DNA of 64,000 nt, from the NCBI RefSeq assembly GCF_036365525.1, contig NW_027140825.1, positions 1,550,001-1,614,000 on the forward strand, given 5' to 3'. The position numbers and the translations under genes are program-made. This document shows, in pieces, positions 15,990 to 58,509 of this stretch (its first letter is position 1; every line of letters begins with the position of its first letter). This DNA is from Heterodontus francisci (lineage: Eukaryota). The notes below the pieces were generated by a model. The model was not told the DNA's origin. It saw nothing but the letters and a program-made list of their open reading frames with translations, and made no database searches.

Positions 15990-17199
15990 TCAGTGCTCAT
16001 CTTCCCCCGGCAGGGGGCAGCAGTAGATTAAATCTCAATGCTCATCTTCCCCCGGCAGGGGGCAGCAGTAGATTGAATCTCAGCGCTCATCTTCCCCCGG
16101 CAGGGGGCAGCAGTAGATTGAATCTCAGTGCTCATCTTCCCCCGGCAGGGGGCAGCAGTAGATTGAATCTCAGTGCTCATCTTCCCCCGGCAGGGGGCAG
16201 CAGTAGATTGAATCTCAGTGCTCATCTTCCCCCGGCAGGGGGCAGCAGTAGATTAAATCTCAGTGCTCATCTCCCCCCGGCAGGGGGCAGCAGTAGATTA
16301 AATCTCAGTGCTCATCTCCCCCCGGCAGGGGGCAGCAGTAGATTGAATCTCTGCGCTCATCTTCCCCCGGCAGGGGGCAGCAGTAGATTGAATCTCAGTG
16401 CTCATCTTCCCCTGGCAGGGGGCAGCAGTAGATTGAATCTCTGCGCTCATCTTCCCCCGGCAGGGGGCAGCAGTAGATTAAATCTCAGTGTTCATCTTCC
16501 CCCGGCAGGGGGCAGCAGTAGATTGAATCTCTGCGCTCATCTTCCCCCGGCAGGGGGCAGCAGTAGATTGAATCTCTGCGCTCATCTTCCCCCGGCAGGT
16601 GGCAGCAGTAGATTGAATCTCTGCGCTCATCTTCCCCCGGCAGGGGGCAGCAGTGGATTGAATCTCAGTGCTCATCTTCCCCCGGCAGGGGGCAGCAGTA
16701 GATTGAATCTCTGCGCTCATCTTCCCCCGGCAGGGGGCAGCAGTAGATTGAATCTCAGTGCTCATCTTCCCCCGGCAGGGGGCAGCAGTAGATTGAATCT
16801 CAGTGCTCATCTTCCCCCGGCAGGGGGCAGCAGTAGATTGAATCTCTGCGCTCATCTTCCCCCGGCAGGGGGCAGCAGTAGATTGAATCTCTGCGCTCAT
16901 CTTCCCCCGGCAGGGGGCAGCAGTAGATTGAATCTCTGCGCTCATCTTCCCCCGGCAGGGGGCAGCAGTAGATTGAATCTCAGTGCTCATCTTCCCCCGG
17001 CAGGGGGCAGCAGTAGATTGAATCTCAGTGCTCATCTTCCCCCGGCAGGGGGCAGCAGTAGATTGAATCTCTGCGCTCATCTTCCCCCGGCAGGGGGCAG
17101 CAGTAGATTGAATCTCAGTGCTCATCTTCCCCCGGCAGTGGGCAGCAGTAGATTGAATCTCAGTGCTCATCTTCCCCCGGCAGTGGGCAGCAGTAGATT
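15990..17199 (+). repeat. 45-bp tandem array, 27 copies, each with a CTCF-type core CCGGCAGGGGGCAGC
   Basis: Cores at 16007+45n to 17177; unit AATCTCAGTGCTCATCTTCCCCCGGCAGGGGGCAGCAGTAGATTG. The array is certain; CTCF binding is inferred. Confidence 0.95.
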
Positions 17200-29296: not shown

Positions 29297-29333
29297 TGCA
29301 GCGGATGAACGGGAGTTCAGTGCTCATCTTCAA

Positions 29334-29348
29334 CTGGCAGGGGGCAGC
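29334..29348 (+). promoter_or_regulatory. Single RSS-proximal CTCF-type motif
   Basis: CTGGCAGGGGGCAGC 37 bp after nonamer. Confidence 0.55.
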
Positions 29349-30616
29349 AGTAGATTGAAGCTTATTGTTCATATCTATCTGTCCACCTGATTGTTTATCT
29401 CTCTGTCTCTCTATCTATCTATCTCTTTACCTGGTTATCCATCTCTGTCTCTCTATCTATCTAACTCTATCGTTAGTTCATTACAGTTTGTGAGAACTAA
29501 TTAAACATACTGCAGTAATGTAATGAATGACCATCTTTTCATCGATTTTCTATATATTGACCAGTAGAAGATGTGATTTGTCATCAATTATCTATCAAAA
29601 TCCTCTATGATCTTCAATATCTGTATCACATCTACCATTAACCTTCTCTGCTCTAAGGGCAGAAACCCCCAGCTTCTCCAGTCTCTCCACAGTAATTGAA
29701 CTCCCACATCCCTGGTACCAGTCTTGTTAATCTCCCTCTAACCTTCACTACACAGAGGCGAACAACCCCCCAATGAACAGGAACTAACTCAGATCGGAAC
29801 CCTTAACCATCTGAGCGCTGTTTCACACTGTTCAAAGGCGAGATCCCTCTCCAGATAACTTCATCTCTGGGACACCTGCCTCCTGACAGCGAGTTCAGAA
29901 GCGCCCAAGTGTCCTTCTTGAATAATGTTACAACATTCGCTGTCCTCCATTCCTCTGAGACCACTCCTGTGGCCAGAGAGAATTGAAAATTTGTGTCAGA
30001 GGCCCTGAAATCTCCTCCCTTGCCTCACATAACAGCCTGGGATATGTCTCATCCGGGCTGCGGTCTTATCCACTTTTAAGACTGCTAAAACAGCTAATAC
30101 TCCTCCCTTTAAAAGCTAATATGTTCAAGTATATCACAACCCCCCTCCCTGATATCTACACCGACATCATCCTTCTCCATAGTGAACATAGTGAAATATG
30201 CCGTTCTTATCCGGTCTGGCCTATATGTGCCTCCAGACCAACAGCAATGTTGTTGACTATTAACTGCCCAGCAGGCATTCCCGAAGATGGTTCACCACCA
30301 CCAACTCAAGGGCAATAAGGGATGCGCACACTCTCCGGGTACAGAGGGTTGTTTCCCTGAATTCTACTCTATCAAATCCCTTTCTGAAATGTGAACACCT
30401 CTATTCAATCTCCCCCTATCCTCCTGTGTTGTATCATTCTACAACATTGCTATGTAAAGTAATGGGGTGGAGCAGAGTGTTGCAGTAAGTGACTGCCACT
30501 CACAATTACAACCGGATGCTGGGTATTTAATTGGATACAATATAGAAACTGCCTGCAAGTGTGTTGTTGAAAACTCCACACGTTCACACATCGAGTTAGT
30601 ATCGAATGAAGAAATC

Positions 30617-31391: not shown

Positions 31392-31428
31392 TGCAGCGGA
31401 TGAACGGGAGTTCAGTGCTCATCTTCAA

Positions 31429-31443
31429 CTGGCAGGGGGCAGC
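31429..31443 (+). promoter_or_regulatory. Single RSS-proximal CTCF-type motif
   Basis: CTGGCAGGGGGCAGC. Confidence 0.55.
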
Positions 31444-32757
31444 AGTAGATTGAAGCTTATTGTTCATATCTATCTGTCCACCTGATTGTTTATCTCTCTG
31501 TCTCTCTATCTATCTATCTCTCTACCTGGTTATCTATCTCTCTGTCTCTCTATCTATCGAACTCTATCTTTAGGTAATTACAGATTGTATGAACTAATTA
31601 AACATACTGCAGTAATGTAATGAATGACCATCTTTTCATAGATTTTCTATATATTGACCAGTAGAAGATGTGATTTGTCATCAATTATCTATCAAAATCC
31701 TCTATGATCTTCAATATCTGTATCACATCTAATTAACCTTCTCTGCTCTGAGGGCAGAAACCCCCAGCTTCTCCAGTCTCTCCACAGTAACTGAAGTCCC
31801 TCATCCCTGATACAAGTCTGGTTAATCTCCCTCTAACCTTCACTACACAGAGGTGAACAACTCCCCAATGCACAGAATCTAACTCAGCGCAGAACCCTGA
31901 ACCATCTGAGCGCTGTTTTACACTGTTCAAAGTCGAAACCCCTCTCCAGATACCTTCATCTCTGGGACACCTGCCTCCTGACAGCGAGTTCAGAAGCTGC
32001 TGAAAACTCTTTACCCACTTTCACCTCAGACTCGAGTCACATGTTCTTCAAAGAAACTAGCAGTTCAGACCAGTGAACAATTTAACCATTTAACTCCCAT
32101 TCACCACGGAGGTTCGGCAGCAGAGCAGTTATGTTACTGGGCTCGTAATCCAGAGGCCTGGACTAATGATCCCCAGACTTGAGTTCAATTCCCACACTGG
32201 CAGAAATGCAATTTAAATTCAATTAATTAAATAAATAAAAATCTGTCATGGAAAGTATGAGTAATCCTGAACATGGAGTGTCTTAAAAACCCAACGTCTT
32301 CATTGATTACCTTCAGGAAAGGAATCCACCATTCCTACCCGGTCTGGCCGATATGTGACTCCAGACCCACAGCAATGTGGTTGACTATTAACTGCCCTCT
32401 GATATGGCCCAGCAGGTATTCCCGAAGATGGTTCACCATCACCTTCTCAGGGGCAATAAGGGATGGGCACATTCTCTGGGTGTAGAGGGGCGTTTCCCTG
32501 AATTCTACTCTATCAAAGCCCTTTCTGAAATGTGAACACCTCTATTCAATCTCCCCCTATCCTCCTGTGTTGTATCATTCCACAACATTGCTATGCAAAG
32601 TAATGGGGTGGAGCAGAGTGTCGCAGTAAGTGACTGCCAATAACAATGACAACCGGATGCTGGGTATTTGATTGGATACAATATAGAAACCGACTGCAAG
32701 TGTGTTGTTGAAAACTCCACACGTTCACACATCGAGTTAGTATCGAATGAAGAAATC

Positions 32758-33715: not shown

Positions 33716-33885
33716 TCAGTGCTCATCTTCCACCGACAGGGGGCAGCAGTAGATTGAATCTCTGTGCTCATCCTCCCCCGGCAGGGGGCAACAGAGAATG
33801 AATCTCAGTGCTCATTTGTCGCCAGCAGGTGGCAGCAGTAGATTGAATCTCAGTGCTCATTTTCCGCCAGCAGGTGGCAGCAGTA
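33716..33885 (+). repeat. 45-bp CTCF-motif array, 4 diverged copies
   Basis: Includes GCCAGCAGGTGGCAGCA twice. Confidence 0.88.
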
Positions 33886-36832: not shown

Positions 36833-36835
36833 ATC

Positions 36836-39800: not shown

Positions 39801-41045
39801 GGGCCCCGGGAACAGACCCCCATCTAAATACCCCCCCCAGGAACAGACTCCTATCTAAATACCGCCCCCCCTCCCCCGGAACAGACTCCTATCTAAATAC
39901 CCCCCCCGGGAACAGACTCCTATCTAAATACCCCCCCCCCACCCCCGGAACAGGATCCTATCTAAATACCCCACAGGGAACAGACTCCTATCTAAATACC
40001 CCCCCCCCCCCGGAACAGACTCCTATCGAAACACACCCCCCCCCCCCCGGGAGCAGACTCCTGTCTAAATACCCCCCCAGGAACAGCCTCCTATCTAAAT
40101 ACCCCACCACCCCCGAGGATCAGACTCCTATCTAAATACCCCACAACAGACTCCTATCTAAATACCCCACAGGGAACAGACTCCTATCTAAATACCCCCC
40201 CGGGAACAGACTCCTATCTAAATACCCCCCCGGGCCCCGGGAACAGACCCCCATCTAAATACCCCCCCCCAGGAACAGACTCCCATCTAAATACCCCACC
40301 ACGCCCGAGGAACAGACTCCCATCTAAATACCCCACCACGCCCGAGGAACAGACTCCTATCTAAATACCCCACAACAGACTCCTATCTAAATACCCCACT
40401 GGGAACAGACTCCTATCTAAATACCCCACCACGCCCGAGGAACAGACTCCTATCTAAATACCCCACAACAGACTCCTATCTAAATACCCCCCCCGGGAAC
40501 AGACTCCTATCTAAATACCCCCCCGGGAACAGACTCCTATCTAAATACCCCACAACAGACTCCTATCTAAATACCCCCCCCCCCGAGGAACAGACTCCTA
40601 TCTAAATACCCCACAACAGACTCCTATCTAAATACCCCCACCCGGGAACAGACTCCTATCTAAATACCCCCACCGGGAACAGACTCCTATCTAAATACCC
40701 CCCCGGGAACAGACTCCTATCTAAATACCACCCCCCCCCGGGCCCCGGGAACAGACCCCCATCTAAATACCCCCCCCGGGAACAGAGTCCTATCTAAATA
40801 CCGCCCCCCCCACCCCCGGAACAGACTCCTATCTAAATACCCCCCCCCGGGAACAGACTCCTATCTAAATACCCCCCCCCCACCCCCGGAACAGACTCCT
40901 ATCTAAATACCCCCCCCGGGAACAGACTCCTATCTAAATACCGCCCCCCCCCCACCCCCGGAACAGACTCCTATCTAAACACCCCCCCCCCCCCGGGAAC
41001 AGACTCCTATCTAAATACCCCACAGGGAACAGACTCCGATCTAAC
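36836..41045. repeat. 4.2-kb satellite: constant GGAACAGACTCCTATCTAAATA plus variable C-rich linker
   Basis: >100 units of ~29-45 bp with higher-order blocks. Confidence 0.95.
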
Positions 41046-41280
41046 AGACACTCTTGTTGGGGATGTTAACAACACTTAATCCAGTCACTCAACCATCATA
41101 AGCAACCACGTCCATTCTGATTGGTTGGGTGCTGGAAGGGGGCGTGTCCAACACTGCATGACTTCCTCATGCCCTTCATGTTTTACTCAATGACTTGTAA
41201 AGAGCGGATTGGTTAGTCACAGAACTGATTTCCTCTGTTCCACTTCCTTTGCTGTTTGAGAGGGCAGTGTCAAGTGGGAG

Positions 41281-41722
41281 ATGTATCTGTTCCTGGCTCT
41301 GATAATCCTGGTTCAAGGATACAAAGATTATCCTTCAGAACCTTCCTGTCTTCTCCCTGTCTCCCTTCCATTCCCAGAAGTTCCCTGTTTACTGATCTCC
41401 TCCTCTCTCCATCTCTCTCCCAGATGTCAACTCACAGACTATCCACCAGACTCCCGCCGCAGTCTCCAGGTTTCCCGAGAAATGAGTGGAACTGAGGTGC
41501 ACCGTGGAGGGGAGCAGCAGTAACCTCTCCATGTACTGGTACAGACAATAACCGGGGAAGGAGCCGCTGTTGATGTTTTACTCCAGTACTGTTAACTATG
41601 TGGATCCAGAGGGGACAGTGGGCGGTTTCACCGCCGAGAGACCGACTGACTCCCAGTTCAATCTGGAGACCTCCAGCCTGCGGGAGAATCACTCGGCCGT
41701 GTATTTCTGAGCCTGGAGACTT
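41281..41722 (+). pseudogene. TRBV: V13: family A pseudogene; V exon 41424-41722
   Basis: Donor deleted; TGA 41483, TAA in FR2, second Cys->TGA. Confidence 0.93.
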
Positions 41723-41761
41723 CACACTGACTCAGAGAATTGGAACAGTTCAATAAAAACC
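41723..41761 (+). other. Degenerate 23-RSS of V13
   Basis: CACACTG-23-ATAAAAACC. Confidence 0.88.
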
Positions 41762-42000
41762 CCAAAGGCAGCAGGAAACACCTGTTTTAGATAAAACCAG
41801 GCGGTGCTGCGTCCTGTTGGGTGTTTTTATCATTGGGATCATGTTTTCCGCAAGAAGACAGGGTGGATTTAAATAGAAGGTCGCAGGTTAGAAAGAAGAA
41901 CAGGGAAATTGCGAAATACACTTAACATGAACACAGAGGTTAAAGTTATGAAGATTAATTTGAACATTGGGGGATCTTTGCTCCAGAAAGGAGAAGACTG

Positions 42001-42141
42001 NNNNNNNNNNNNNNNNNNNNNNNNNNNNNNNNNNNNNNNNNNNNNNNNNNNNNNNNNNNNNNNNNNNNNNNNNNNNNNNNNNNNNNNNNNNNNNNNNNNN
42101 NNNNNNNNNNNNNNNNNNNNNNNNNNNNNNNNNNNNNNNNN
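42001..42141. other. Assembly gap (N)
   Basis: Run of N. Confidence 1.
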
Positions 42142-43430
42142 TCACGTGTTTCCTTTCTCCAAAGGGACAGCAGAGTGCACTGTAGGACCATGATAAACAT
42201 CAGAGTCTGCAACACACTTTAACAGTGACCTGGGAACACAAGGAGACCATTCATCACCTCGGAAAAACTCCGACCTTCAATGAGATCAGGAATGATCAAT
42301 AACTTCCTGTCGCTCCCTCTCTCCATTGCTCTTTCTCCATCCCTCTCTCCATCCCCCTCTTTCCCCCTCTCGCCATCCCTCTTTCTCCATCCCCACTCTC
42401 CCTCTCTCTCCCTCCCTCTCTCTCCCACTCGCTACAAAGCCGGTGTAAAATGAGAGAATGCCAATTAACATCCCTGTCTTTTACATGGGCAGTGACTGCC
42501 TCTCTATCTAGCTCGCTAAATCTCTACCTATCTGACTTTCCCTCTATCTCTGTATTTCTCTACCTCTCTATATATCTATCTGTGTACCTGACTGTCTATC
42601 TATCTATCTCTCTACCTGATTATCTATCGCTCTTTCTCGCTATCTATCTAACTCTATCTTTAGCTGATTACAGTTTGTATGAACAGATTAAACATACTGT
42701 AATAATGTAATGAATGACCATCTTTTCAGAGATTTTCTATATATTGACCAGTCGATGATGTGGTTTGTCATCAATTATCTATCAAAATCCTCTATGATCT
42801 TCAATGTCTGTATCACATCTACCATTAACCTTCTGTGCTGCAAGTAGAGAAACCCCCACATTCTCCAGTCTCTCCACAGTAACTGAAGTCCCTCATCCCT
42901 GGCACCAGTCTGGTTAATATCCCTCTCACCTTCACTGCACAGAGGGGAACAACCCCCAATGCACAGGGACTCAATACATCCGGTGATGAAACACAGAGAC
43001 AGAGAGGGTGAATCAGGGAGACATAGAGAGGAAAAACTCAGCGTAAATGAACGGGACAGAGGGAGACAGAGAGAGAACGACACACACACACACACACACT
43101 CACACACACACACACAGACACAGATACAGAGTGAGAAAGAGATTGAAAGAGTTGGAGACATAAAGCTCGATACATGCTGAGAGAGAGAGAGAGAGATAGA
43201 AACAAAGTGTAAGAAAGAGAGAGGAAGGCGGATTGAGATAGATAGAGAGAGAGACGTTGTCAACCTACTCCACTCTAATTTGTTGACCTGGGCGTCACCA
43301 TCTCTGCATCACTTCCTAATGCTCTCCCTGTTCCTCCCAATGATTTGCAAAGAGTGGGTTGGTTATTGACAACACTCATCACTCCTGCTCTCTTCTCTTT
43401 GCTGATTCAGAGGGCAGCATAAAGTAAAAG

Positions 43431-43903
43431 ATGTATCTGTTACTGACTCTGATCACCCTGTTTCACCGTAAGGGATTATATTGAAACAATAATTCTACTT
43501 AACATTTCTTTCGTTGTATTTATTTTTGATTCTCTCTCTCTCTTCTCTCTCCCCAAGGCACTGAATGTCCCTGTTTACTGATCTCTCTGTCTCTTTCCCA
43601 GATGTGAACTCACAGACTATCCACCAGACTCCCACCGCTGTCTCTAAATTGCCTGGTGAGAGAGTGGAACTGAAGTGCACTGTGCAGCGCAGCAGCACCA
43701 GTATCCTATACATGTACTGGTACAGACAATACCCAGGGAAGGAGCCGCAGATGATGTTTTACTCTATCGCTGCACAAAACGTGAAATCAGAGGGGATGGT
43801 GGACGGTTTCACCGCCGAGAGACCGAGTAACTTCGACTTCAACCTGGAGTCCTCCAGCCTGCGGGAGGATCACTCGGCCGTGTATTTCTGTGCCTGGAGT
43901 CTT
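43431..43903 (+). CDS. TRBV: V14: family A V, potentially functional; leader 43431-43467, V exon 43602-43903
   Basis: Open frame, YFCAWSL, consensus RSS. Confidence 0.93.
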
Positions 43904-43942
43904 CACAGTGACTCAGAGAGATGGAGCAGTTCAACAAAAACC
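43904..43942 (+). other. 23-RSS of V14
   Basis: CACAGTG-23-ACAAAAACC. Confidence 0.95.
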
Positions 43943-44019
43943 CCAAAGGCAGCAGGAAACACCTGTGGACTTTAAAACTGCTCGGAGCCGAGAACTTCTT
44001 TCGTTTAGCAGAGCGAAAG

Positions 44020-45649
44020 AATACTGAGATTCAGGCTACTCGGCTCGATGGGATTGAGGTTCACAAGGAGGAGGTGTTAGCAATTTTGGAAAGTGTGAAA
44101 ATAGATAAGTCCCCTGGGCCAGATGGGATTTATCCTAGGATTCTCTGGGAAGCCAGGGAGGAGATTGCAGAGACTTTGTCCTTGATCTTTATGTCATCAT
44201 TGTCGACAGGAATAGTGCTGGAAGACTGGAGGATAGCAAATGTTGTCCCCTTTTTCAAGAAGGGGAGTAGAGACAGCCCTGGTAATTATAGACCTGTGAG
44301 CCTTACTTCGGTTGTGGGTAAAATGTTGGAAAAGGTTACAAGAGACAGGATTTATAATCATCTTGAAAAGAATAAGTTCATTAGCGATAGTCAGCACGGT
44401 TTTGTGAAAGGTAGGTCGTGCCTCACAAACCTTATTGAGTTTTTCGAGAAGGTGACCAAACAGGTGGATGAAGGTAAAGCCGTGGATGTGGTCTATATGG
44501 ATTTCAGTAAGGCGTTTGATAAGGTTCCCCACGGTAGGCTATTGCAGAAAATACGGAAGTATGGGGTTGAAGGGGATTTCGAGCTTTGGATCAGAAATTG
44601 GCTAGCTGAAAGAAGACAGAGGGTGGTGGTTAATGGCAAATGTTCATCCTGGAGTTTAGTTACTAGTGGTGTACCGCAAGGATCTGTTTTGGGGCCACTG
44701 CTGTTTGTCATTTTTAGAAATGACCTGGAAGAGGGTGTAGAAGGGTGGGTTAGTAAATTTGCAGATGACACTAAGGTCGGTGGAGTTGTGAATAGTGCCG
44801 AAGGATGTTGTAGGGTACAGAGAGACATAGATAGGCTGCAGAGCTGGGCTGAGAGATGGCAAATGGAGTTTAATGCGGAAAAGTGCGAGGTGATTCACTT
44901 TGGAAGGAGTAACAGGAATGCAGAGTACTGGGCTAATGGGAAGATTCTTGGTAGTGTAGATGAACAGAGAGATCTTGGTGTCCAGGTGCATAAATCCCTG
45001 AAGGTTGCTACCCAGGTTAATAGGGCTGTTAAGAAGGCATATGGTGTGTTAGCTTTTATTAGTAGGGGGATCGAGTTTCGGAGCCACGAAGTCATGCTGC
45101 AGCTGTACAAAACTCTGGTGAGGCCGCACCTGGAGTATTGCGTGCAGTTCTGGTCACCGCATTATAGGAAGGATGTGGAAGCTTTGGAAAAGGTGCAGAG
45201 GAGATTTACTAGGATGTTGCCTGGTATGGAGGGAAGGTCCTACGAGGAAATGTTGAGGGACTTGAGGTTGTTTTCGTTGGAGAGAAGGAGGAGGAGAGGT
45301 GACTTAATAGAGACATATAAGATAATCAGAGGGTTAGATAGGGTGGATAGTGAGAGTCTTTTTCCTCGGATGGTGATGGCAAACACGAGGGAACATAGCT
45401 TTAAGTTGAGGGGTGATAGATATAGGACAGATGTCAGAGGTAGTTTCTTTACACAGAGAGTAGTATGGGCGTGGAACGCCCTGCCTGCAACAGTAGTAGA
45501 CTCGCCAACTTTAAGGGCATTTAAGTGGTCATTGGATAGACATATGGATGAAAATGGAATAGTGTAGGTCAGATGGTTTCACAGGTCGGCGCAACATCGA
45601 GGGCCGAAGGGCCTGTACTGCGCTGTAATGTGCTAATTCTAATTCTAAT
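44020..45649 (+). mobile_element. Duplicate of the 5'-truncated CR1 LINE (RT frame open to 45567)
   Basis: Near-identical to 20495-22124 with the same junctions. Confidence 0.95.
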
Positions 45650-45766
45650 AACAAAAACACCAAAGGCAGCAGGAAAGATTTGTAAAGAGTGGATTTGGAC
45701 CTTCACAAGACTCTAAGCTCCTACTGTCACTCCTGTGTCTATTAAGAGAACAAGTTACAGTGAAAG

Positions 45767-46222
45767 ATGTATCTGTTAATGGGTCTGATAATCCTGTTTC
45801 ACTGTAAGTGAGCATGAAATACAAAGATTATCGTTAATAACCTTCCTCTCCTCTCCCTGTCTCCCTTTCATTCCCAGAAATTCCCTGTTTACTGATCTCC
45901 TCCTCTGTCCATCTCTGTCCCAGATGTGAACTGACAGACTATCCACCAGACTCCCACCGCTGTCTCCAGATTTCCCGGGAAAGGAGTAGAACTGATGTGC
46001 ACTGTCAAGGGGAGCAGCAGTAGCATCTCCATGTACTGATACAGACAACACCCGGGGAAGGAGCCGCTGTTGATGTTTTACTCCAGTTTTGCTAACTATG
46101 TGGATCCAGAGGGGACGGGGAAAGGTTTTACCGCCGAGAAACTGAATAAGTACGAGTTCAAACTGGAGTCCTCCAGCCTGCGTGAGAATCACTCGGCCGT
46201 GTATTTCTGTGCCTGGAGTCTT
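45767..46222 (+). pseudogene. TRBV: V15: family A pseudogene; leader 45767-45803, V exon 45924-46222
   Basis: Same two TGA stops as V6. Confidence 0.93.
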
Positions 46223-46255
46223 CACAGTGAGAGATGGAGCAGTTCAACAAAAACC
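46223..46255 (+). other. Defective RSS of V15 (17-bp spacer)
   Basis: CACAGTG-17-ACAAAAACC. Confidence 0.9.
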
Positions 46256-48014
46256 CCAAAGGCAGCAGGAAACACCTGTTTCAGATAAAACCAGGCGGTG
46301 CTGCGTCCTGTTAGTTGTTTTTGGCATTGGAAAAGTGTTTTTCACAAGAAGACAGGGCGGATTTAAACAGAAAGTGAGAGGTTAGAAATAGAAGCACAGG
46401 GGAATTGTGAAATAGACTTCACAGGAATGATATCGGAACAAAGATAGTTTGAACATCTTTGCTCCAGAAAGGAGAAGACTGAAGGGTGAACATTCATAGT
46501 TCTTAGAAAGATTATAAAAGGGTTTAATGTGTGAAGTGAAGATCAGATAGGTAGGGAGATAGGTCGATAGATAGCTGGTAGGCAGACAGACAAAGTTGTG
46601 TTTTATTCACCGACAATGTTGTCTTTATCCACAGCGACAGCAGAGGGCGGTGTAGGACCGTGATAAGTATCAGATTATTGATGATGTTTCAATAGGGACT
46701 TTGAAACTTGTCTATGAACCTCTCCTGATAATTATAGAACTACATCCCGGTTACAGTCTGGTGAACTGAACACAAGGTACCGCAGATGCTGGATGGTTTA
46801 GGTTCTGGGCGCTCTTTCACTGTCTTGGAGCTCATTGTGTTTCTGGGTTATAAATAAATAAGGATGGAAATACTAATCAGGTCAGACAGCCTCTGTGGAG
46901 AGAGACAAAACATTAACATATCAGGTCGTAGACCTTTCAACAGAACTGGAAGGATTTAGTGATCTATCAGCTTTTAAGCAGCAGAAAGCCAGGGAGAGGG
47001 AGAATGGGAGGAATGCAGGAGAGACTTAATAACAAAACTGAGGCTGGTGCAAGACAAAGGAGATGTTAATGGGTCAAGTAAAGAACAAGAGATGGGTCTA
47101 GAGGAGGTGAAAGTAGCAGAAACACAATTATTACCAACAAACCTCTGCCCATATAAACCGGAGCAGTTGTTACGATCAGAAATTGTTTAACTCACTGTTG
47201 AGCCCAGAAAGCTGCAAAGTATCCAATTGAAAGATGATGTGCTTTTCTTCGAGTTTCTGTTGAGCTTCACTGGAGCAGAGAAGGAGGTCGAGGACAGAGA
47301 GGTGGGAGTGGGAATGAGAATTAAAAGTATCCGCTAACGAGAATCTCAGGGTCACACTTGCAGCCTGAATGCAGGATGTTCCACAATGCTGTTAGCCTGT
47401 AGCTGTACTTGGTCTCTGCAGCTAGTCCCACTCCCCCTGCCCTTTCTAAATAACACTGCATATTTTTCTTACACATAATTATTCAAATTTCCTTTTGAAA
47501 GCGACGATTGAAACTGCCTCCCCCGCACTCTCAGGTAGTGCATTCCAGATCCTAACCATTCACTGTGTCAAAACGTTTCCTCAGTTCACCTTTGGATCTT
47601 CTGCCAATTACCATCAATAAGTGACCTCTGGTTCTCAATCAATCCGGTGATGAAACATAGAGACAGAGAGGGTGAATCAGGGAGACGTCGTGAGGAAAAG
47701 CTCAGTGGAAATGAACGGGACAGAGGGAGACAGAGACAGAAAGATGCACACACTCACAAACACACACAGATACAGAGAGAGAAAAAAGAATGAAAGAGTT
47801 GCAGACATAAAGCTGGATGTATGCAGATAGAGAGAGAGAGACATTGTCAACCTACTCCACTCTGACTTGTTTACCTGGGCGTCACCATCTCTGCATCACT
47901 TCCTAATGCTCTCCCTGTTCCTCCCAATGATTTGTAAAGAGTGGGTTGGTTATTAACAACACTCATCACTCCTGCTCTCTCCCCTTTGCTGATTCAGAGG
48001 GCAGCTTAAAGTAA

Positions 48015-48491
48015 ATGATGTATCCGTTAATGACTCTGATCACCCTGTTTCACCGTAAGGCATTTTATTGAAACAATAATTCTACTTAACATTTCTTTAG
48101 GTTATGTTTTTATTTATTTATTTCTCTCTTTCTCTCTCCCACTGGACTGAAGTTCCCTGTTTACTGATCTCCTCCTCTCCCTGTCTCTTTCGCAGATGTG
48201 AACTCACAGAATATCCACCAGACTCCCGCCGCTGTCTCCAAATTTTCTGAGGAGCAGGTGAAGCTGAAATGCACCGTGCAGGGCAGCAGTAACCCTGACA
48301 TGTTCTGGTACAGACAATACCCGGGGAAGGAGCCACAGTTTATGTTTTACTCCACAGGTACTGATCACATAAATCCGGAGAAGGCGGTGGACGGTTTCAC
48401 CGCCGAGAGACCGACTAGCTCCCAGTTCAATCTGGAGTCCTCCAGCCTGCGGGAGAATCACTCGGCCGTGTATTTCTGTGCCTGGAGAGAT
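48015..48491 (+). CDS. TRBV: V16: family A (CAWRD) V, open frame; leader to 48054, V exon 48196-48491
   Basis: SQNIHQTP..CTVQGSSNPDMFWYRQ..YFCAWRD. Confidence 0.9.
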
Positions 48492-48528
48492 CACAGTGAC
48501 TCAGAGTTGGAGCAGTTCAACAAAAACC
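48492..48528 (+). other. RSS of V16 (21-bp spacer)
   Basis: CACAGTG-21-ACAAAAACC. Confidence 0.9.
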
Positions 48529-50261
48529 CCAAAGGCAGCAGGAAACACCTGTGGAGGGTAAAACTGCCCGAAGCCTCGAATTTCTTTCGTTTTGCAGAGC
48601 GAAAGTGTTTATGATAACAAGAAGAGATGGGTCAGAGTGGTAGTGAGAGATTAGATATACAGGTAGTAGAGAATGTGCTAAGAACAATTGACAAGGATAA
48701 CACGAGATCTGAGGTTCTAACTATCAGGAAAGATCAACTATAAAACGACTTGAGTTCTTCTGCATTGACACTGAGTTTTCCTCCTCTGTAGGGTTAACAG
48801 AGGGTGCTCGAGGACCATGAATGCACAATGGCCTGGCAAACATTTAATAGGAAAACAGAAAGAGGCAGAGGTCATACAGCCCTCGAGCTTCATACACATT
48901 GACAGGAGAAGCACATTCATCACCTTAGAGAGGGATATACACACACTCAACGAGAGAGACAAATCGAGGGAGACCGAGTGTGTGAGAGAGGGATAGAACA
49001 AGATTGAGAGGAAAACTGACAGAGACAGAGAGACTGAGACAGAGAGACTGGGACTGAGACAGAGAGAGACTGAGAGAGAGAGACTGAGAAAGAGAGATTG
49101 AGACAGACAGGAGAAGAGAGAGGAGAGCGAGGAGGACAGAGATGGGGAACAAGAAAGAGAGAGAGGGAGAACAAAAAACACAGAGGAAGAGACTGAGACA
49201 GAGAGACTGAGACAGAGAAACAGTGAGGGAGACTGAGAGAGAGAGACTGAGAGACAGAGAGAGACAGAGAGTGAGAGAGAGACAGAGAGAGAGAGACAGA
49301 GACAGAGAGAGAGAGACTGAGAGAGAGACAGAGAGAAAGCGACTGAGGGAAAGCGACTGAGACAGAGAGACAGACAGAGGAGAGAGAGGAGGACAGAGAG
49401 GGGGAAGAAGGAAGTGCGAGAGAAAAGCAAAAAAAACACAGAGGAAGAGAGTGAGACAGATTGGGAGACAGACACACACACACACAGAATGAGACAGGGA
49501 GAGAAAGACAGCAAGCAGTAAAACAGAAAGAGACAGTTAACTAAAGACAGAGCGAGTGAGAAACACACGCACTCACATGCACAGCTTTGTATCCGTGCCC
49601 ATTCATCTTCCAGCTCATTGAATAAGAATATCCCGTGATCTCAGGATTGTAACTATCAGGAATGAATAACAATAAAAGGACTGGGGCTGTTATAGACTGA
49701 CACTGTGTATATTTTCACCACAGGGACAGCTGAGGACGCTCTTGGACCATGTGATGTACAATGGCTTTTGAGAAGGAGTTCACAGGAAAACTGAAACAGT
49801 GGGAGAACATACAGTCCTCCAGGTTGATATACATGACCAGGAGAAGGAAATCCACATCCTTAGAGAGAGAGAAGAGAGAGAGAGACACACACACAGCGAG
49901 AGAGACAGAGAGAGAGACAAAGACAGAGAGAGAGACCTAATGTGTGTGTATCTGTGAGAGAGAGACTGAAATAAACAGACTGAGACATACAGGGAGGCAC
50001 AGAAGAGAGACAGAGAGGAAGAAAGGAGCATCTCAAGTAAAGGACAGGGAGAGACAGAGGGAGAGAGAGAAAGTGGGTCATTGGCAACCAACTCGATTCT
50101 CATTTGTTGATGTGGGAAATGAACATCACCATCTCTGCATCACTTCCTAATGCTCTTCCTGTTCCTCCCAATGATTTGTAAAGAGTGGGTTGGTTATTAA
50201 CAACACTCATCACTCCTGCTCTCTCCCCTTTGCAGATTCAGAAGGCAGCTTAAAGTAAAAG

Positions 50262-50746
50262 ATGTATCTGTTACTGACTCTGATCACCCTGTTTCACCGT
50301 AAGGAATTTTATTGAAACAATAATTCTACTTAACATTTCTTTAGGATATGGTTTTATTTATTTCGTTCTCTCCTTCTCTCTCTTTCTCTCTCCCCACTGG
50401 ACTGAATTTCCCTGTTTATTGATCTCCTCCTCTCCCTGTCTCTTTCCCAGATGTGAACTCACAGACTATCCTCCAGTCTCCCGCCACTGTCTCCAGATTT
50501 TCTGAGGAGCAGGTGAAGCTGAAATGCACCGTGGAAACGACCAGTGACCCTTACATGTACTGGTACAGACAATACCCGGGGAAGGAGCCGCAGCTGATGT
50601 TTTACTCCCTAACTGCACAAAGGGAGAACTCAGAGGGGACGGTGGAAGGTTTCACCGCCGAGAGACCGACAAACTCTGAGTTCAACCTGGAGTCCTCCAG
50701 CCTGCGGGAGAATCACTCGGCCGTGTATTTCTGTGCCTGGAGAGAT
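50262..50746 (+). CDS. TRBV: V17: family A (CAWRD) V, open frame; leader 50262-50298, V exon 50451-50746
   Basis: CTVETTSDPYMYWYRQ..YFCAWRD. Confidence 0.9.
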
Positions 50747-50783
50747 CACAGTGACTCAGAGATGGAGCAGTTCAACAAAAACC
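50747..50783 (+). other. RSS of V17 (21-bp spacer)
   Basis: CACAGTG-21-ACAAAAACC. Confidence 0.9.
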
Positions 50784-51287
50784 CTAAAGGCAGCAGGAAA
50801 CACCTGTGGAGGATAAAACTGCTCGGAGCCTCGAACTTCTTTCGTTTTGCAGAGAGAAAGTGTTCATGATAACAAGAAGAGATGGGTTTGAGTGGTAGTG
50901 AGAGATTAGATATACAGGTAGTGGAGAATGTGCAAAGAACAATTAACAAGGATAACACCAGATCTGAGGTGTAACTATCAGGAAGAATTAACTATAAAAC
51001 GACTTGAGTTTTACTGCACTGACACTGAGTTTTCTTCCTCTATATGGTTAACAGAGGGTGCTCTAGGACCATGAATACACAATGGCCTGTAAAACATTTA
51101 ATAGGAAAACAGGAAGAGGCAGAGGTCATCCAGCCCTCCAGCATCATACACATGGACAGGAGAAGGACATTCATCACCTTAGAGAGGGATACACACACAC
51201 AGTGAGAGAGACAAAGAGAGGGAGACCGAGTGTGAGAGAGGGTCAGAACGAGATTTAGAGGAAAACTGACAGAGACAACAGACTGAA

Positions 51288-51472
51288 NNNNNNNNNNNNN
51301 NNNNNNNNNNNNNNNNNNNNNNNNNNNNNNNNNNNNNNNNNNNNNNNNNNNNNNNNNNNNNNNNNNNNNNNNNNNNNNNNNNNNNNNNNNNNNNNNNNNN
51401 NNNNNNNNNNNNNNNNNNNNNNNNNNNNNNNNNNNNNNNNNNNNNNNNNNNNNNNNNNNNNNNNNNNNNNNN
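51288..51472. other. Assembly gap (N)
   Basis: Run of N. Confidence 1.
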
Positions 51473-51886
51473 TACTGAGACAGAGAGGGGTCAGAGAGAC
51501 TGAAACAGATCGACTGAGAGAGAGAGGCGGACAGAGAGACTGAAACAGAGAGAGTGAGAGAGAGAGAGCCTGAGACAGAGAGGGGGATAGAGAGACTGAG
51601 ACAGTGAGAGTGAGACAGAGAGACTGAGAGAGAGAGAGGGGGACAGAGAGACTGAGATAGAGAGGGGGACAGAGAGAGAGAGAGAGAGAGAGAGAGAAGG
51701 AGATTGGCAGCCAATACAATTCTGATTTGTTGACCTGGGGGAATGGGCGTCTCCAACATTGTATCACTTCCTAATGCTCTTCATGTTCCTCCCAATGATT
51801 TGTAAAGAGTGGATTTGGACCTTCACAAGACTCTAAGCTCCTGCTCTCACTCCTGTGTCGATTAAGAGAACACGTTGAAGTGAAAG

Positions 51887-52342
51887 ATGTATCTGTTACT
51901 GGGTCTGATAATCCTGTTTCATTGTAAGTGAGTATGAAATGCAAAGATTATCGTTAATAACCTTCCTCTCCTCTCCCTGTCTCCCTTTCATTCCCAGATG
52001 CTCCCTGTTTACTGATCTCCTCCTCTCTCCATCTCTCTCCCAGATGTGAACTCACAGACTATCCGCCAGACTCCCGCCGCTGTCTCCAGATTTCCTGGGA
52101 AAGGAGTGGAACTGAGGTGCACTGTGGAGGGGATCAGCAGTACCATCTCCATGTACTGGTACAGACAAGAGCCGGGGAAGGAGCTGCTGTTGATGTTTTA
52201 CTCCAATACTGCTAACTATGTGGATCCAGAGGGGACAGTGGATGGTTTCACCGCTGAGAGACCGAATGAGTACGAGTTCAACCTGGAGTCCTCCAGCCTG
52301 TGGGAGAATCACTCGGCCGTGTATTTCTGTGCCTGGAGTCTT
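51887..52342 (+). CDS. TRBV: V18: family A V, potentially functional; leader 51887-51923, V exon 52044-52342
   Basis: MYLLLGLIILFH-Y-VNSQTIRQTP...YFCAWSL. Confidence 0.93.
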
Positions 52343-52381
52343 CACAGTGACTCAGAGCGATGGAGCAGTTCAACAAAAACC
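52343..52381 (+). other. 23-RSS of V18
   Basis: CACAGTG-23-ACAAAAACC. Confidence 0.95.
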
Positions 52382-54430
52382 CCAAAGGCAGCAGGAAATA
52401 CCTGTTTCAGATAAAACCAGGCGGTGCTGCGTCCTGTTGGGTGTTTTTATCATTGGGAACATGTTTTTCACAAGAAGACTGGGCGGATTTAAATAGAAAT
52501 TGAGTGGTTAGATATTGAAACACAGGGGAATTGTGAAATAGACTTTACAGGAATGATATCAGAACACAGAGGTTAAAGTTATCAAGAAAGTTTGAACATC
52601 GGGGGATTATTTCTCCAGAAAGGAGAAGACAAGAGTAAACTTTAAGCGGTCTAAGGGAGATTATTAAAGATTTTAATATCTGAAATGAAGATCAGATAAA
52701 AACAGAAAGACAGACAGACAGTCAGATAGACAGATAGATAGATACGGTGTGGTTTTATTTCACTGCGTTTTCTTTCTCCAAAGGGACAGCAGAGTGCGCT
52801 GTTGGACCATGATAAACATCAGAGTCTGGAACACAGTTTAAGTGACCTGGGAACACAAGGAGAACATTCATCACCTCGAAAACACTCCGCCCTTCAATGA
52901 GTTCGTGACTTATCAATAACTTTCTGTCGCTCCCTCTCTCCATCCCTCTCGCTCCATCCCTCTCTCTCCATCCCTCTCTCTCCATTCCTCTCTAACCATC
53001 CCTCTGTCTCCATCCCTCTCTCTCCATCCCACTCTCTCCATCTCTGTCGCTCCCTCTCTCTCTATTCCCCACTCTACCACTGGCTGCAAAGCTGGCGTAA
53101 AATGGTAGAATGCGAATTAACATTCCTGTCTTTTACAGGGGCAGTGACTGTCTCTCCATGTAGCTCGCTATTTCTCTACCTGTCTGACTTTCCTTCCAAC
53201 TCTCTATTTCTCTACCTCTCTCGATACCAATCTATCTCTCTACCTGGTGATCTATCTCTCTGTCTCTCTATATATTCAACTCTATCTTTAGGTGATTACA
53301 GTTTGTATGAACTAATTAAACATGCTGCACTAATATAATGAATGACCATCATTTCCGGGATTTTCTATACATTGACCAGTAGATGATGTGGTTTGTCATC
53401 AATTATCTATCAAAATCTTTTATCATCTTCAATATCTGTATCACATCGACCATTAAACTTCTCTGCTCTCAGGAGAGAAACCCCCAGCTTCTCCAGTCTC
53501 TCCACAGTAATTGAACTCCCTCATCCCTGGTACCAGTCTTGTTAATCTCCCTCTAACCTTCACTACACAGAGGCGAACAACCCCCCAATGAACAGGAACT
53601 AACTCAGCTCGGAACCCTTAACCATCTGACCGCTGTTTCACACTGTTGAAAGGCGAGATCCCTCTCCAGATAACTTCATCTCTGGGACACCTGCCTCCTG
53701 ACAGCGAGTTCAGAAGAGCACAAGTGTCCTTCTTGAATAATGGTACAACATTCGCTGTCCTCCAGTCCTCTGAGACCACTCCTGTGGCCAGAGAGAATTG
53801 AAAATTTGTGTCAGAAGCCCTGAAATCTCCTCCCTTGCCTCACATAACAGCCTGGGATATGTCTCATCCGGGCTGCGGTCTTATCCACTTTTAAGACTGC
53901 GAAAACAGCTAATACTCCTCCCTTTAAAAGCTAATATGTTCAAGTATATCACAACCCCCCTCCCTGATATCTACACCTACATCATCCTTCTCCATAGTGA
54001 ACATAGTGAAATATGCCGTTCTTACACGGTCTGGCCTATATGTGCCTCCAGACCAACAGCAATGTTGTTGACTATTAACTGCCCAGCAGGTATTCCCGAA
54101 GATGGTTCACCACCACCAACTCAAGGGCAATAAGGGATGGGCACACTCTCCGGGTACAGAGGGTTGTTTCCCTGAATTCTACTCTATCAAATCCCTTTCT
54201 GAAATGTGAACACCTCTATTCAATCTCCCCCTATCCTCCTGTGTTGTATCATTCAACAACATTGCTACACAATGTAATGGGGTGGAGCAGAGTGTGCAGT
54301 AAGTGACTGCCAATCACAATGACAACCGGATGCTGGGTATTTAATTGGATACAATATAGAAACCGCCTGCAAGTGCGTTGTTGAAAACTCCACACGTTCA
54401 CACATCGAGTTAGTATCGAATGAAGAAATC

Positions 54431-55298
54431 ATGTTGCATGAAGTTCTCAGTCTAATCTTGATGGCTGCACTCTTCCCACGTAAGTCAAAGTCAGAAACTG
54501 TGTCGAATAATGTATTGTAATGTCAGCGGTGATTCTGTTCCATAACACTGCTGTGTCAGAGTCTCACTCCAGAACACTTGAGCTCAAAGTCAAAACTAAC
54601 ACCCCAGGTGTCAGGGCTGAGGGAGTGCTGGACTGTCGCAGAGGCAGTACTGCGGGTGTGCTGCACTGTCGCAGAGGCAGTACTGAGGGTGTGCTGCACT
54701 GTCGCAGAGGCAGTACTGAGGGAGTGCAGCACTGTCACAGAGGCAGTACTGAGGGAGTGCAGCACTGTCGCAGAGGCAGTACTGAGGGAGTGCCGCACTG
54801 TTGCAGAGGCAGTACTGAAGGAGTGCTGCACTGTCGCTGAGGCAGTACTGAGGGAGTAACTACATTGGTTGCAAAGCCCTTTCTGATGCCCTAAGGTCCT
54901 GAACGGCGATATATTAATGTAAGCCCTCTCTTTCTTGTAATGCAGCCCCTGCTCCAGTCCATTATTGACTGAAATAATAATTTAATCGATGTTCCGTCCC
55001 ACAGGAATACTCGCCTCCAATGTGGAACAGACACCCTCTATCCTATCGCTTTCCGCAGGAGAGTCGACAACACTCAGATGCACGCTGAAGAATACTGGCT
55101 ATCCTACAATGTCCTGGTACAGACAACAGCCAGACAGGGCACTGGAAGCTCTGTTCAATTCTGCTGGAACAGGGTCTGTCACCAATTACACGTCCGAGTC
55201 ATTTAAGGCAGACAGACCCAGCAATACACTGTTTACTTTGGCACTGAGAGACGCCGCTCCATCTCACACCGCTGTCTATTTCTGCGCTTGTAGTATCG
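54431..55298 (+). CDS. TRBV: V19: family B V, potentially functional; leader 54431-54479, V exon 55005-55298
   Basis: LRCTLKNTGYPTMSWYRQ..YFCACSI. Confidence 0.93.
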
Positions 55299-55337
55299 CA
55301 CAGTGTTTGAGAAAGCGGATCCTCAGCTGCAAAAACC
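55299..55337 (+). other. 23-RSS of V19
   Basis: CACAGTG-23-GCAAAAACC. Confidence 0.95.
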
Positions 55338-55374
55338 TGCAGCGGATGAACGGGAGTTCAGTGCTCATCTTCAA

Positions 55375-55389
55375 CTGGCAGGGGGCAGC
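55375..55389 (+). promoter_or_regulatory. Single RSS-proximal CTCF-type motif
   Basis: CTGGCAGGGGGCAGC. Confidence 0.55.
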
Positions 55390-56711
55390 AGTAGATTGAA
55401 GCTTATTGTTCATATCTATCTGTCCACCTGATTGTTTATCTCTCTGTCTCTCTATCTATCTATCTCTTTACCTGGTTATCTATCTCTCTGTCTCTCTATC
55501 TATCTAACTCTATCTTTAGGTAATTACAGTTTGTTTGAACTAATTAAACATACTGCAGTAATGTAATGAATGACCATCTTTTCATAGATTTTCTATATAT
55601 TGACCAGTAGAAGATGTGATTTGTCATCAATTATCTATCAAAATCCTCTATGATCTTCAATATCTGTATCACATCTAATTAACCTTCTCTGCTCTAAGGG
55701 CAGAAACCCCCAGCTTCTCCAGTCTCTCCACAGTAACTGAAGTCCCTCATCCCTGATACCAGTCTGGTTAATCTCCCTCTAACCTTCACAAAACAGAGGC
55801 GAACAACCCCCCAATGCACAGGAACTAACTCAGCACAGAACCATTAACCATCTGAGCGCTGTTTCACACTGTTCAAAGGCGAAACCCCTCTCCAGATAAC
55901 TTCATCTCTGGGACACCTGCCTCCTGACAGCGAGTTCAGAAGCTGCTGAAAACTCTTTACCCACTTTCACCTCAGACTCGAGTCACATTTAATGTGTTCT
56001 TCAAAGAAGCCAGCAGTTCAGACCAGTGAACAATTTAACCATTTAACTCCCATTCACCACAGAGGTTCGGCAGCAGGGCAGTAATGTTACTGGGCTAGTA
56101 ATCCAGACGCCTGGACTGATGATCCCCAGACTTGAGTTCAATTCCCACCGGGGCAGAAATGCAATTTAAATTCAATTAATTAAATAAATAAAAAATTGTC
56201 ATGGAAAGTATGAGTAATCCTGAACATGGAGTGTCTTAAAAACCCAACGTCTTCATTGATGACCTTCAGGGAAGGAAATCCGCCATTCCTACCCGGTCTG
56301 GCCTATATGTGACTGCAGACCCACAGCAATGTGGTTGACTGTTAACTGCGCCCTGATATGGCCCAGCAGGTATTCCCGAAGATGGTTCACCATCACCTTC
56401 TCAGGGGCAATAAGGGATGGGCACACTCTCTGGGTATAGAGGGTTGCTTCCCTGAATTCTACTCTATCAAATCCCTTTCTGAAATGTGAACACCTCTATT
56501 CAATCTCCCCCTATCCTCCTGTGTTGTATCATTCAACAACATTGCTATGTAAAGTAATGGGGAGGAGCAGAGTGTCGCAGTAAGTGACTGCCAATCACAA
56601 TGACAACCGGATGCTGGGTATTTAATTGGATACAATATAGAAACCGCCTGCAAGTGTGTTGTTGAAAACTCCACACGTTCACACATCGAGTTAGTATCGA
56701 ATGAAGAAATC

Positions 56712-57578
56712 ATGTTGCACGAAGTTCTCTGTCTAATCTTGATGCCTGCCCTGTTCCCACGTAAGTCAAAGTCAGAAACAGAGTCGAATAATGTATTGTA
56801 ATGTTAGGGGTGATTCTGTCCGGAACACTCCTGTGTCTGAGTCTCACTCCAGAACATTTGAGCTCAATGTCAAGGCTGACAAACCACGTGTCAGGACTGA
56901 GGGAGTGCTGCACTGTCGCAGAGGCAGTACTGAGGGAGTGCTGCACTTTCACAGAAGCAGTACTGAGGGAGTGCTGCACTGTCACAGAGGCAGTACTGAG
57001 GGAGTGCTGCACTGTCGCAGAGGCAGTACAGAGTGAGTTCTGCACTGTCGCAGAGGCAGTACTGAGGGACTGCAGCACTGTCGCAGAGGCAGTACTGAGG
57101 GACTGCTGCACTGTCGAATAGGCAGTACTGATGGAGTAACTGCATTTGTTGCAAAGCACTTTCTGATGTCCGGAGGTCCTGAACGGCGCTATATTAATGT
57201 AAGCCCTTTCTTTCTTGCAATGCAGCTCCTGCTCCAATCCATTATTGACTGAAATAATAATCTAATCGATGTTCCATTCCACAGGAATACTCTCCTCCTA
57301 TGTGGAACAGTCACCCTCGATCCTATCGATTGCAGCAGGAGGGTCGACAACACTCAGATGCACGCTGACCAATACTGCCTATTCCTATATGTACTGGTAC
57401 AGACAACAACCAGACAGGGCACTGGAAGCTCTGTTCTATTCTGCTACAGAAGGGTCTGTTACCAATTACACGTCCGAGTCACTTAAGGCAGTCAGAGCCA
57501 GCGATACGCTGTTTACTTTGGCACTGAGAGACGCCGCTCCATCTCACACCGCTGTTTATTTCTGCGCTTGTAGTATTG
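56712..57578 (+). CDS. TRBV: V20: family B V, potentially functional; leader 56712-56760, V exon 57285-57578
   Basis: Open frame, YFCACSI. Confidence 0.93.
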
Positions 57579-57617
57579 CACAGTGTTTGAGAAAGCGGAT
57601 ACTCAGCTGCAAAAACC
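57579..57617 (+). other. 23-RSS of V20
   Basis: CACAGTG-23-GCAAAAACC. Confidence 0.95.
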
Positions 57618-57637
57618 TGCAGCGGATGAACAGGAGT

Positions 57638-58127
57638 TCAGTGCTCATCTTCCACCGGCAGGGGGCAGCAGCAGATTGTATCTCAATGCTCATTTTCCAC
57701 CAGCAGGGGGCAGCAGTAGATTGAATCTCAGTTATCATCTTCCAACGGCAGAGGGGCAGCAGTAGATTGAATCTCAGTTATCATCTTCCACCGGCAGGGG
57801 GCAGCAGTAGATTGAATCTCAGTGCTCATCATCCACTGGCAGGGGGCAGCAGTAGATTGAATCTCAGTGCTCATCTTCCCCCTGCAGGGGGCAGCAGTGG
57901 ATTGAATCTCAGTGCTCAACTTCCACCGGCAGGAGGCAGCAGTAGATTGAATCTCAGTGCTCATCCTCCACCGGCAGGGAGCAGCAGTTGATTGAATCTC
58001 AGTGCTCATCTTCCACCGGCAGGGGGCAGCAGTAGATTGAATCTCAGTGCTCATCTTCCACCGGCAGGGGGCAGCAGTAGATTGAATCTCAGTGCTCATC
58101 TTCCACCGGCAGGGGGCAGCAGTAGAC
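57638..58127 (+). repeat. 45-bp CTCF-motif array, 11 copies
   Basis: CCACCGGCAGGGGGCAGCAGTAG units from 57655 to 58106. Confidence 0.93.
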
Positions 58128-58509
58128 TGACTGCTCATTTTCTGCAACCAGTTCATGGAATCATCTTGGATAACAGAACAGAAGGAGACCATTCGGCCCA
58201 TCTCCCCCGTACTGGCTTATTTGAAAGAACTGTCCAGTTTATGCTCTTCCCCCCTGCTACTTCCCCATAGCCATGCACATTGATTCCATTCACGTGTGCA
58301 ATCCATTGCCTTTTGAATGTTCATGTTCAAGGTGCTTCCAACACCCTTTCAGACAGTGCTAGCCACATCATAACAACTCGCTGCTTAAACAAATCATCAC
58401 ATCTCCCCCCTCCCCCCACTTATTCATCTGCCAGTTACATTTAATCAATGTCTCCTGGTTGCCTTCTGCCGAAAGAAGCAGCTTCTGTTCATTTATAGTT
58501 TTAAAATAA

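Follow-up and report, generated by a model that had tools for sequence, protein, structure and literature searches.

A 45-bp CTCF-consensus unit behind the recombination signals of a shark TCR-beta V family, present in 1-42 tandem copies

Our analysis indicates that the 11-copy tandem array behind a V gene of the window, by which we mean the whole stretch of 64,000 nucleotides analysed (C779:1550001-1614000 of a 6.0-Gb assembly), belongs to a long series of arrays at the same place, all built from a 45-bp unit that carries a CTCF-consensus site and stands behind the RSS of one TCR-beta V family. The best reading is that the unit is probably an old RSS-linked CTCF element, like the CBEs of mouse proximal VH genes, and that it would have been amplified into a drifting minisatellite.

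Results

The array and the V gene in front of it

On the + strand, a leader exon of a TCR-beta V at 56712..56760 (MLHEV..., then a GT donor), whose N-terminus resembles the shark TRB proteins P0002 and P0004, precedes a V exon at 57285..57578 with a 97-amino-acid open frame ending in YFCACSI. Among 492 candidates, its translation gave four matches, TCR-beta chains from three sharks, at 64-75% identity; the V gene before the array is therefore a shark TRBV. The exon is followed by a 23-RSS at 57579..57617, found in the RSS scan with an exact heptamer and one mismatch in the nonamer, by a spacer at 57618..57637 which family comparison shows to be of constant length, and by the array at 57638..58130. 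Two runs, X5 and X8, that look like RNA (the tool's guess) have loose ends resembling the leader where the V exon starts, and this suggests that the family is spliced. Contigs of the same runs over 57140-57690 continue past the RSS into the single-unit 3' junction; they are possibly unrearranged V transcripts, or DNA carry-over.

TRF describes the array as a tandem repeat of period 45 with 10.9 copies, 91% matches and a score of 830, well inside the range of VNTRs with head-to-tail units of 10-100 bp. We divided it into 11 units of 45 bp, with one forward CTCF-consensus site per unit; the 14-mer cores lie at 57655, 57700, 57791, 57836, 57881, 57926, 57971, 58016, 58061 and 58106, unit 3 being disrupted by an insertion. 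The 3' junction at 58131..58160 (+), which we call the T1 tail, opens like a worn unit start and resembles a tail in the sawshark protein P0003; going by this resemblance to a unit, it is the probable seed repeat for the first duplication. A coding role of the array was rejected, since the read-through frame meets a stop in unit 2.

Scored against the 14-mer CTCF consensus CCASYAGRKGGCRS quoted in PMC6746451, units 1-11 have 1, 0, 4, 1, 2, 1, 2, 2, 1, 1 and 1 mismatches, so that 10 of the 11 match with at most two mismatches (12-14 of 14 positions) and 7 with at most one. When one unit was dinucleotide-shuffled 20,000 times, 54 shuffles gave a match with at most one mismatch on either strand; DNA outside arrays has 16 such sites in 595,870 strand-bases, a background of about 0.0013 per 50 bp. 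In the accessible part of Table S1 of PMC6746451, mCTCF43, which is predicted to be an RSS-associated site of the mouse, has a 12-base core identical to that of the shark unit, and a distance of 34 bp is given for one mouse site. The CTCF core of the unit contains a CpG, which could be methylated.

An earlier note on this DNA, whose labels V20 and V3 we keep where needed, had set this array beside a 27-copy paralogous array at 15990..17199 (+; 3' junction 'T2'; TRF and unit split) behind V3, claiming that both occupy the same place relative to the RSS, that their majority units differ and that the 57638 array is the more heterogeneous. Our measurements bear out all of this. Each array begins 20 bp past the nonamer of its 23-RSS (RSS at 57579 and 15931); the majority unit is CCACCGGCAG in 7 of 11 units of the first and CCCCCGGCAG in 26 of 27 units of the second; and the mean distance between units over 39 columns is 3.5 in the 57638 array against 1.6 in the V3 array. 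Between the two arrays it is 3.7, with a minimum of 1.

A unit fixed behind one V family

The window holds 16 V-type 23-RSS, all on the + strand, and the 45-bp unit stands behind all six members of the V family, in 27, 1, 1, 4, 1 and 11 copies. Four of these had been overlooked by the earlier note, namely a divergent 4-copy paralogous array at 33716..33885 behind a V with a stop codon (RSS at 33657), and single units at 29317..29361 (two mismatches to the consensus; RSS at 29258; inner member of a 2.2-kb V run), at 31412..31456 (RSS at 31353) and at 55358..55402, the last behind the V with RSS at 55299, immediately upstream of the array-bearing V; all four are on the + strand. Behind the 10 other-family V genes of the window, no site with at most two mismatches lies within 100 bp in any case.

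Genome-wide, an exact RSS pattern gave 110 sites, and 100 of these together with further matches led to the 76 merged stretches that we examined. They contain at least 136 family V genes, including the window's six, and the unit is found behind the RSS in 135 of the 136, the exception being clipped by a stretch edge. The units are on the V strand in every family member, and the first 14-mer core begins exactly 35 bp past the nonamer in 132 of 135. Excluding nine edge-cut V genes leaves 127 V genes with 769 units (255 distinct); 59 of these genes are single-copy and 68 carry 2-42 copies. An exact 27-mer matches 269 times in the genome; 262 matches lie within the examined stretches, every one behind a family RSS, and the other 7 lie outside the examined DNA; on this ground we rejected a dispersed repeat or a piece of a transposon.

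At least one site with no more than one mismatch is retained in all 68 multi-unit V genes and is present in just 3 of the 59 single-unit genes. Since the frame is open in 55 of these 59, a strong site is dispensable for an intact V. One of the recurrent changes in the single-unit genes is, however, common among the predicted mouse VH sites in Table S1 of PMC6746451, so that worn sites may still bind.

The arrangement is also found beyond this assembly. A second individual of the source species shows the 45-bp go-back joint of a tandem unit in raw short reads (12 reads, 11 starts), and in one sample of a second species (organism B) contigs link V, RSS and unit, again with 45-bp go-back joints. 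Moreover, the sawshark protein P0003, annotated through the RSS, aligns with the spacer and one unit (alignment score 78, against a mean of 20 and a maximum of 45 in 2,000 shuffles) and then with a T1-type tail. By codon logic the sawshark unit, seen as protein only, must depart from the consensus in at least one of the 14 positions, and the read-through points to one ancestral site. A further protein search for read-through homologues gave one protein, which ends before the unit.

Homogenisation and change of array length

Minisatellites and VNTRs evolve by unequal exchange and conversion, and the shark array resembles them in its lineage-specific homogenisation, its block duplications and its length differences between near-identical copies. 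It is unlike an ordinary VNTR in that the unit is a regulatory consensus at a fixed distance from the RSS and in that the length differences are known between gene copies.

The claim that the arrays were homogenised separately is sustained over the whole family: among the 43 arrays of at least five units, units differ by 2.6 inside arrays versus 4.3 between them, a contrast reached in 0 of 500 permutations. Divergence falls with array length (rho -0.70, 43 arrays), from about 6-8 differences between units in short arrays to about 1.5-1.9 in long, homogeneous ones. The two main 3'-junction classes, with 93 and 100 distinct units, have just 5 units in common; at a diagnostic position, 243 of 257 units in the 57638 array's class have A, and 286 of 414 in the other have C. 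A unit tree of the window arrays gives a CCAC/CCCC split with bootstrap 59 and places unit 6 of the 57638 array among V3 units; the tree is built on few sites, with most supports below 60.

Copy number is likewise unstable, here between gene copies, where the earlier note had supposed a VNTR that may be polymorphic between individuals. Ten V genes at least 98.5% identical to the 57285 V (itself counted) and sharing its 3' flank carry 7, 8, 8, 8, 8, 9, 11, 11, 13 and 13 units, and copy number is unequal in 29 of 65 near-identical V pairs, these sisters all coming from one assembly and probably being paralogues. What does not survive is the description of the 57638 array as independent, since the unit is fixed across the V family, the short arrays are divergent and of old standing, and an array is present in a second species too. 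Units inside short arrays differ by 15-20%, while the 57285 V and V3 differ by 6.5% over 539 bp; unit divergence greater than V divergence suggests that the multi-copy state is itself old. We draw no order of events from the V tree, which, rooted at its midpoint, shows one aberrantly long branch and deep nodes that are weak.

Single-copy genes have a characteristic position. In the class with the single-unit junction, the next family V lies within 2.6 kb downstream in 53 of 56 genes, whereas none of the 63 genes of the two array-type junction classes has a family V within 7 kb downstream in the examined stretches. We infer that single-copy genes are inner members of V runs, produced by a 2.2-kb V duplication that breaks after unit 1; having one copy only, such inner genes would be unable to expand by unequal exchange.

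Two local rearrangements were seen along the way. The segments 17895-33200 and 41043-57130 form a recent segmental duplication (offset about 23.5-24 kb, 95-98% identical), in which the 57285 V and the 4-copy V with RSS at 33657 occupy matching places yet have different 3' junctions, suggesting conversion or unequal exchange. In a sister V with 14 units at C761:911629 (L081), the usual tail is gone and the array is joined directly to sequence further downstream, which is a deletion at the array end.

Tests for selection on motif and copy number

To look for selection we used a minimum-spanning tree of 204 unit haplotypes with 296 events. In array units the non-CpG changes that break the motif number 60.8, where the rates outside the core predict 61.6 and permutation gives a mean of 64.0 (p=0.33), so that there is no depletion; on this tree no purifying selection on the motif inside arrays is detected, by a test that is weak if the remainder of the unit is likewise constrained. 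CpG decay is symmetric, with 6.6 breaking and 6.0 improving events, and an apparent 49:16 CpG-decay bias toward the consensus among haplotypes was gone once events were counted. For motif versus flank conservation, the deep comparison consists of one read-through protein (P0003), beside the p=0.33 within arrays.

Gene integrity has no monotonic relation to copy number over the 127 V genes: frames are open in 55 of 59 genes with one unit, 18 of 27 with 2-6 units and 37 of 41 with at least 7. Among 30 related V genes, copies are weakly more numerous nearer D (rho -0.36, p=0.048).

Cassettes of the TRB locus

A constant-domain search, in which the best 150 of 373 candidates were scored, gave at least 21 strong C exons on six contigs (C407, C761, C779, C1317, C1675 and C2233) and on both strands. 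These 21 exons represent 11 distinct DNA sequences, 1-5 differences apart, with one amino-acid variant. We mapped two cassettes, over 157 and 146 kb, and the order in both is V(n), D, D, at least two J, C; in the window's cassette (C779:1561434-1663400), D1 lies 28 kb and C 54 kb downstream of the 57285 V. We conclude that the V(n)-D-D-J(n)-C cassettes of TRB, which lie in both orientations, number at least 21 and probably 23. Several TCR-beta constant genes were reportedly suggested for the horn shark by cDNA and Southern work in the 1990s, which may partly anticipate the layout. A multi-cassette TRB is unexpected against the usual picture of a single translocon, the translocon type being what PMC6795676 gives for shark TCR loci; the portions available of PMC12227049, PMC2435157 and PMC11754216 hold nothing on TRB cassette number. 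So many cassettes raise questions of allelic and cassette exclusion.

At the level of motifs, the V-strand sites are convergent with sites near D and 3' of C. In both mapped cassettes the V-side CTCF-consensus sites are oriented as their V, and a forward/reverse pair 105 bp apart, facing inward, lies about 5 kb upstream of D1 (in the window's cassette, L108, at C779:1631217 and 1631322). The forward half of this pair has 23 genomic copies, of which 21 lie 25-46 kb upstream of a same-strand C and two near contig ends; the reverse half was examined in the two cassettes. The position of the pair is IGCR1-like. Behind C, a reverse site stands 7.5-8.5 kb from C exon 1 in all 19 full-length stretches (L131-L149), none of which has a forward site there, two more stretches being clipped by contig ends; this reverse site is a candidate 3' anchor. 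Because the cassettes are copies of one ancestral cassette, the layout counts as one observation, and since all gene and cassette copies have a common ancestry, our large counts do not stand for separate events. Where a V gene is inverted with respect to the nearest C, as some are, its sites are flipped along with it, so that the whole locus is not one-directional.

Discussion

How could such a series have arisen, and what might it do? We propose, with a probability of roughly 0.55, that the unit is an RSS-linked CTCF element which stalls cohesin loop extrusion and so presents the adjacent V to RAG, and that its copy number drifts. In this scheme one ancestral site, with a short direct repeat at its flanks, would have been duplicated once via slippage or unequal exchange; arrays of two or more copies would then have expanded, contracted and been homogenised lineage by lineage, while 2.2-kb V duplications with their breakpoint at the end of unit 1 would have left stable single-copy inner genes. 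By analogy with the mouse proximal VH genes, CTCF would bind the unit in thymocytes, and additional copies would be redundant, with no selection on individual copies. The drift is supported by the homogeneity of long arrays beside the divergence of short ones and by unequal lengths in 29 of 65 near-identical pairs. The CTCF part is supported by the motif match, the fixed position of the unit and its restriction to one RSS family, its presence in organism B and sawshark, and the orientation of the sites near D and behind C. Against the proposal count the lack of depletion of motif-breaking changes, the weak sites of single-unit genes with open frames, the mismatch in the sawshark unit, a spacing unlike that of mouse and human, the CpG in the core and the inward-facing pair before D.

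The closest known system is mouse Igh, where proximal VH genes carry a CBE just 3' of the RSS. According to the accessible text of PMC7930373 and bioRxiv 2020.01.01.891473, a VH with a mutated CBE is used less, a VH whose dead CBE is repaired becomes dominant, and these CBEs are oriented toward IGCR1-CBE1 and the 3'CBEs; RSS-linked CTCF elements are established for mammalian IgH. The shark unit is like these proximal-VH CBEs (VH81X-CBE) in its near-identical core, its fixed short distance past the nonamer and its single orientation, and also in its tie to certain V families and in being accompanied by sites of the opposite orientation at the V-D boundary and downstream of C. It differs in belonging to TCR-beta and not IgH, in having 1-42 tandem copies and not one, and in being known from sequence alone. 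Moreover, its 35-bp spacing is fixed but of a different length from the 17-19 bp of most mouse VH-type sites and the 19 or 48 bp of human ones (PMC6746451, available sections), and its D-boundary pair faces inward, whereas the mouse IGCR1 pair is divergent.

In appearance the arrays recall the CTCF 'hot spots' of human IGH, with up to 50 sites in 2.1 kb that are not RSS-associated (PMC6746451, text and Table S2 as available). The hot spots share with them dense, co-oriented CTCF-consensus sites in the V region, at a mean spacing of about 42 bp, but the shark array starts at an RSS-linked place and recurs behind dozens of paralogous V genes in varying lengths. The Igh 3'CBEs and the protocadherin clusters likewise have many same-direction sites predicted to stall cohesin more often, and tandem CTCF sites are treated as permeable, cumulative anchors (PMC7087399, in the text available); those, however, are spaced, distinct sites on the scale of a cluster, while the shark array is a 45-bp minisatellite that varies between gene copies. 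Most plausibly, the shark element works like the proximal-VH CBEs and looks like the IGH hot spots. The literature searched, from which most subscription papers fell outside, gave no report of CTCF arrays at shark TCR RSSs or of a shark TRB with more than 20 cassettes, and the combination of RSS anchoring, minisatellite and paralogue copy series was not found in it.

Could copy number itself be what matters, as in the earlier note's suggestion of a VNTR that tunes V accessibility? More tandem sites might make a stronger extrusion stop, with more use of the adjacent V or V run and shielding of upstream V genes, an array at the D-proximal end of a run serving the whole run; copy number, from 1 to 42, would then dial V usage across more than 20 parallel TCR-beta cassettes through extrusion-stop strength at D-proximal run ends. 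We find this doubtful. Arrays do sit on the last V of runs (0 of 63 array-junction V genes have a family V within 7 kb downstream, against the 53 of 56 single-unit-junction genes with one within 2.6 kb), yet that placement follows from the duplication breakpoints alone. A good site is kept in 68 of 68 multi-unit genes, and the 45-bp period would be compatible with one CTCF per unit, but no constraint on individual copies is detected (p=0.33). The weak increase of copies toward D (rho -0.36) points the same way as the proposal, while the sisters span 7-13 copies with no apparent optimum and the share of open frames does not track copy number. From other systems, CTCF sites are described as permeable to cohesin and tandem sites as balancing contacts (PMC7087399, accessible text), and an inserted 20-CBE array changes Igh looping (PMC7930373, accessible text).

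The same absence of depletion would be expected of a neutral G+C-rich minisatellite whose source site is no longer bound, for instance because it is methylated, or was never relevant to TRB rearrangement. The region is rich in other minisatellites (106 TRF rows), single-unit genes combine worn sites with open frames, and the accessible Table S3 of PMC6746451 gives one VH-type site for each of the mouse and human TCR-beta loci; yet neutrality sits poorly with the fixed 35-bp spacing, the restriction of the unit to one RSS family, the consensus-compatible unit in sawshark and the reverse sites at the D boundary and behind C, and we consider it improbable. Far less likely still is that the copy series and the many cassettes are mostly haplotype duplicates and mis-sized repeats of the assembly. 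The locus is indeed spread over 7 unjoined contigs, and 16 groups of V sequences are identical between places; but the 11 distinct DNA sequences to which the 21 C exons reduce are more than two haplotypes can supply, D and J are not the same in the two mapped cassettes, what distinguishes the arrays is ordered, shared unit variants and not random length, and the 45-bp go-back joint recurs in another individual's raw reads (12 reads, 11 starts).

If the layout of an RSS-linked, drifting CTCF element holds at shark TCR-beta, CTCF-guided V(D)J recombination would date from early jawed vertebrates and would extend to a T-cell locus. The number of CBEs is an open point in the RAG-scanning model, and here nature offers an experiment: dozens of near-identical V genes in near-identical cassettes that differ mainly in site number. 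With a copy series of 1-42 over more than 20 cassettes the question of CBE dose is directly testable, and one thymus data set could address it. Should copy number prove to set V usage after all, the arrays would control the T-cell repertoire in a heritable and fast-mutating way, and would supply a ready-made dose series for the effect of CBE number on RAG scanning.

Other features of the window

Another large V family, with RSS at 11434, 12640, 20379, 24972, 41723, 43904, 48492, 50747 and 52343, has CACCTG about 15 bp past the nonamer in 8 of 9 members, within a conserved stretch that replaces the CTCF site; we take this to be an E-box-like word. The V genes at 24972, 48492 and 50747 have an RSS spacer of 21-22 bp and not 23, and the first also has stop codons. 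Further forward CTCF-consensus sites keep fixed, larger distances from other V types: those at 23113 and 46638 follow one V type by about 2.7 kb, and one near 62398 follows the V at 60951 by 1.4 kb. Such sites recur in the C761 map. A possible J segment at window position 467 was rejected, being a 12-RSS-like match without a J behind it.

Every V of the array-bearing family in the window has a 33-bp minisatellite of variable length in its leader-V intron (at 15277-15489, 28609-28816, 30803-30911, 32938-33216, 54617-54857 and 56892-57137), which gives each gene a second repeat that varies in length, and a 4.2-kb C-rich complex minisatellite with a period of about 30-36 bp and a strong strand skew lies between V genes at 36835-41044.
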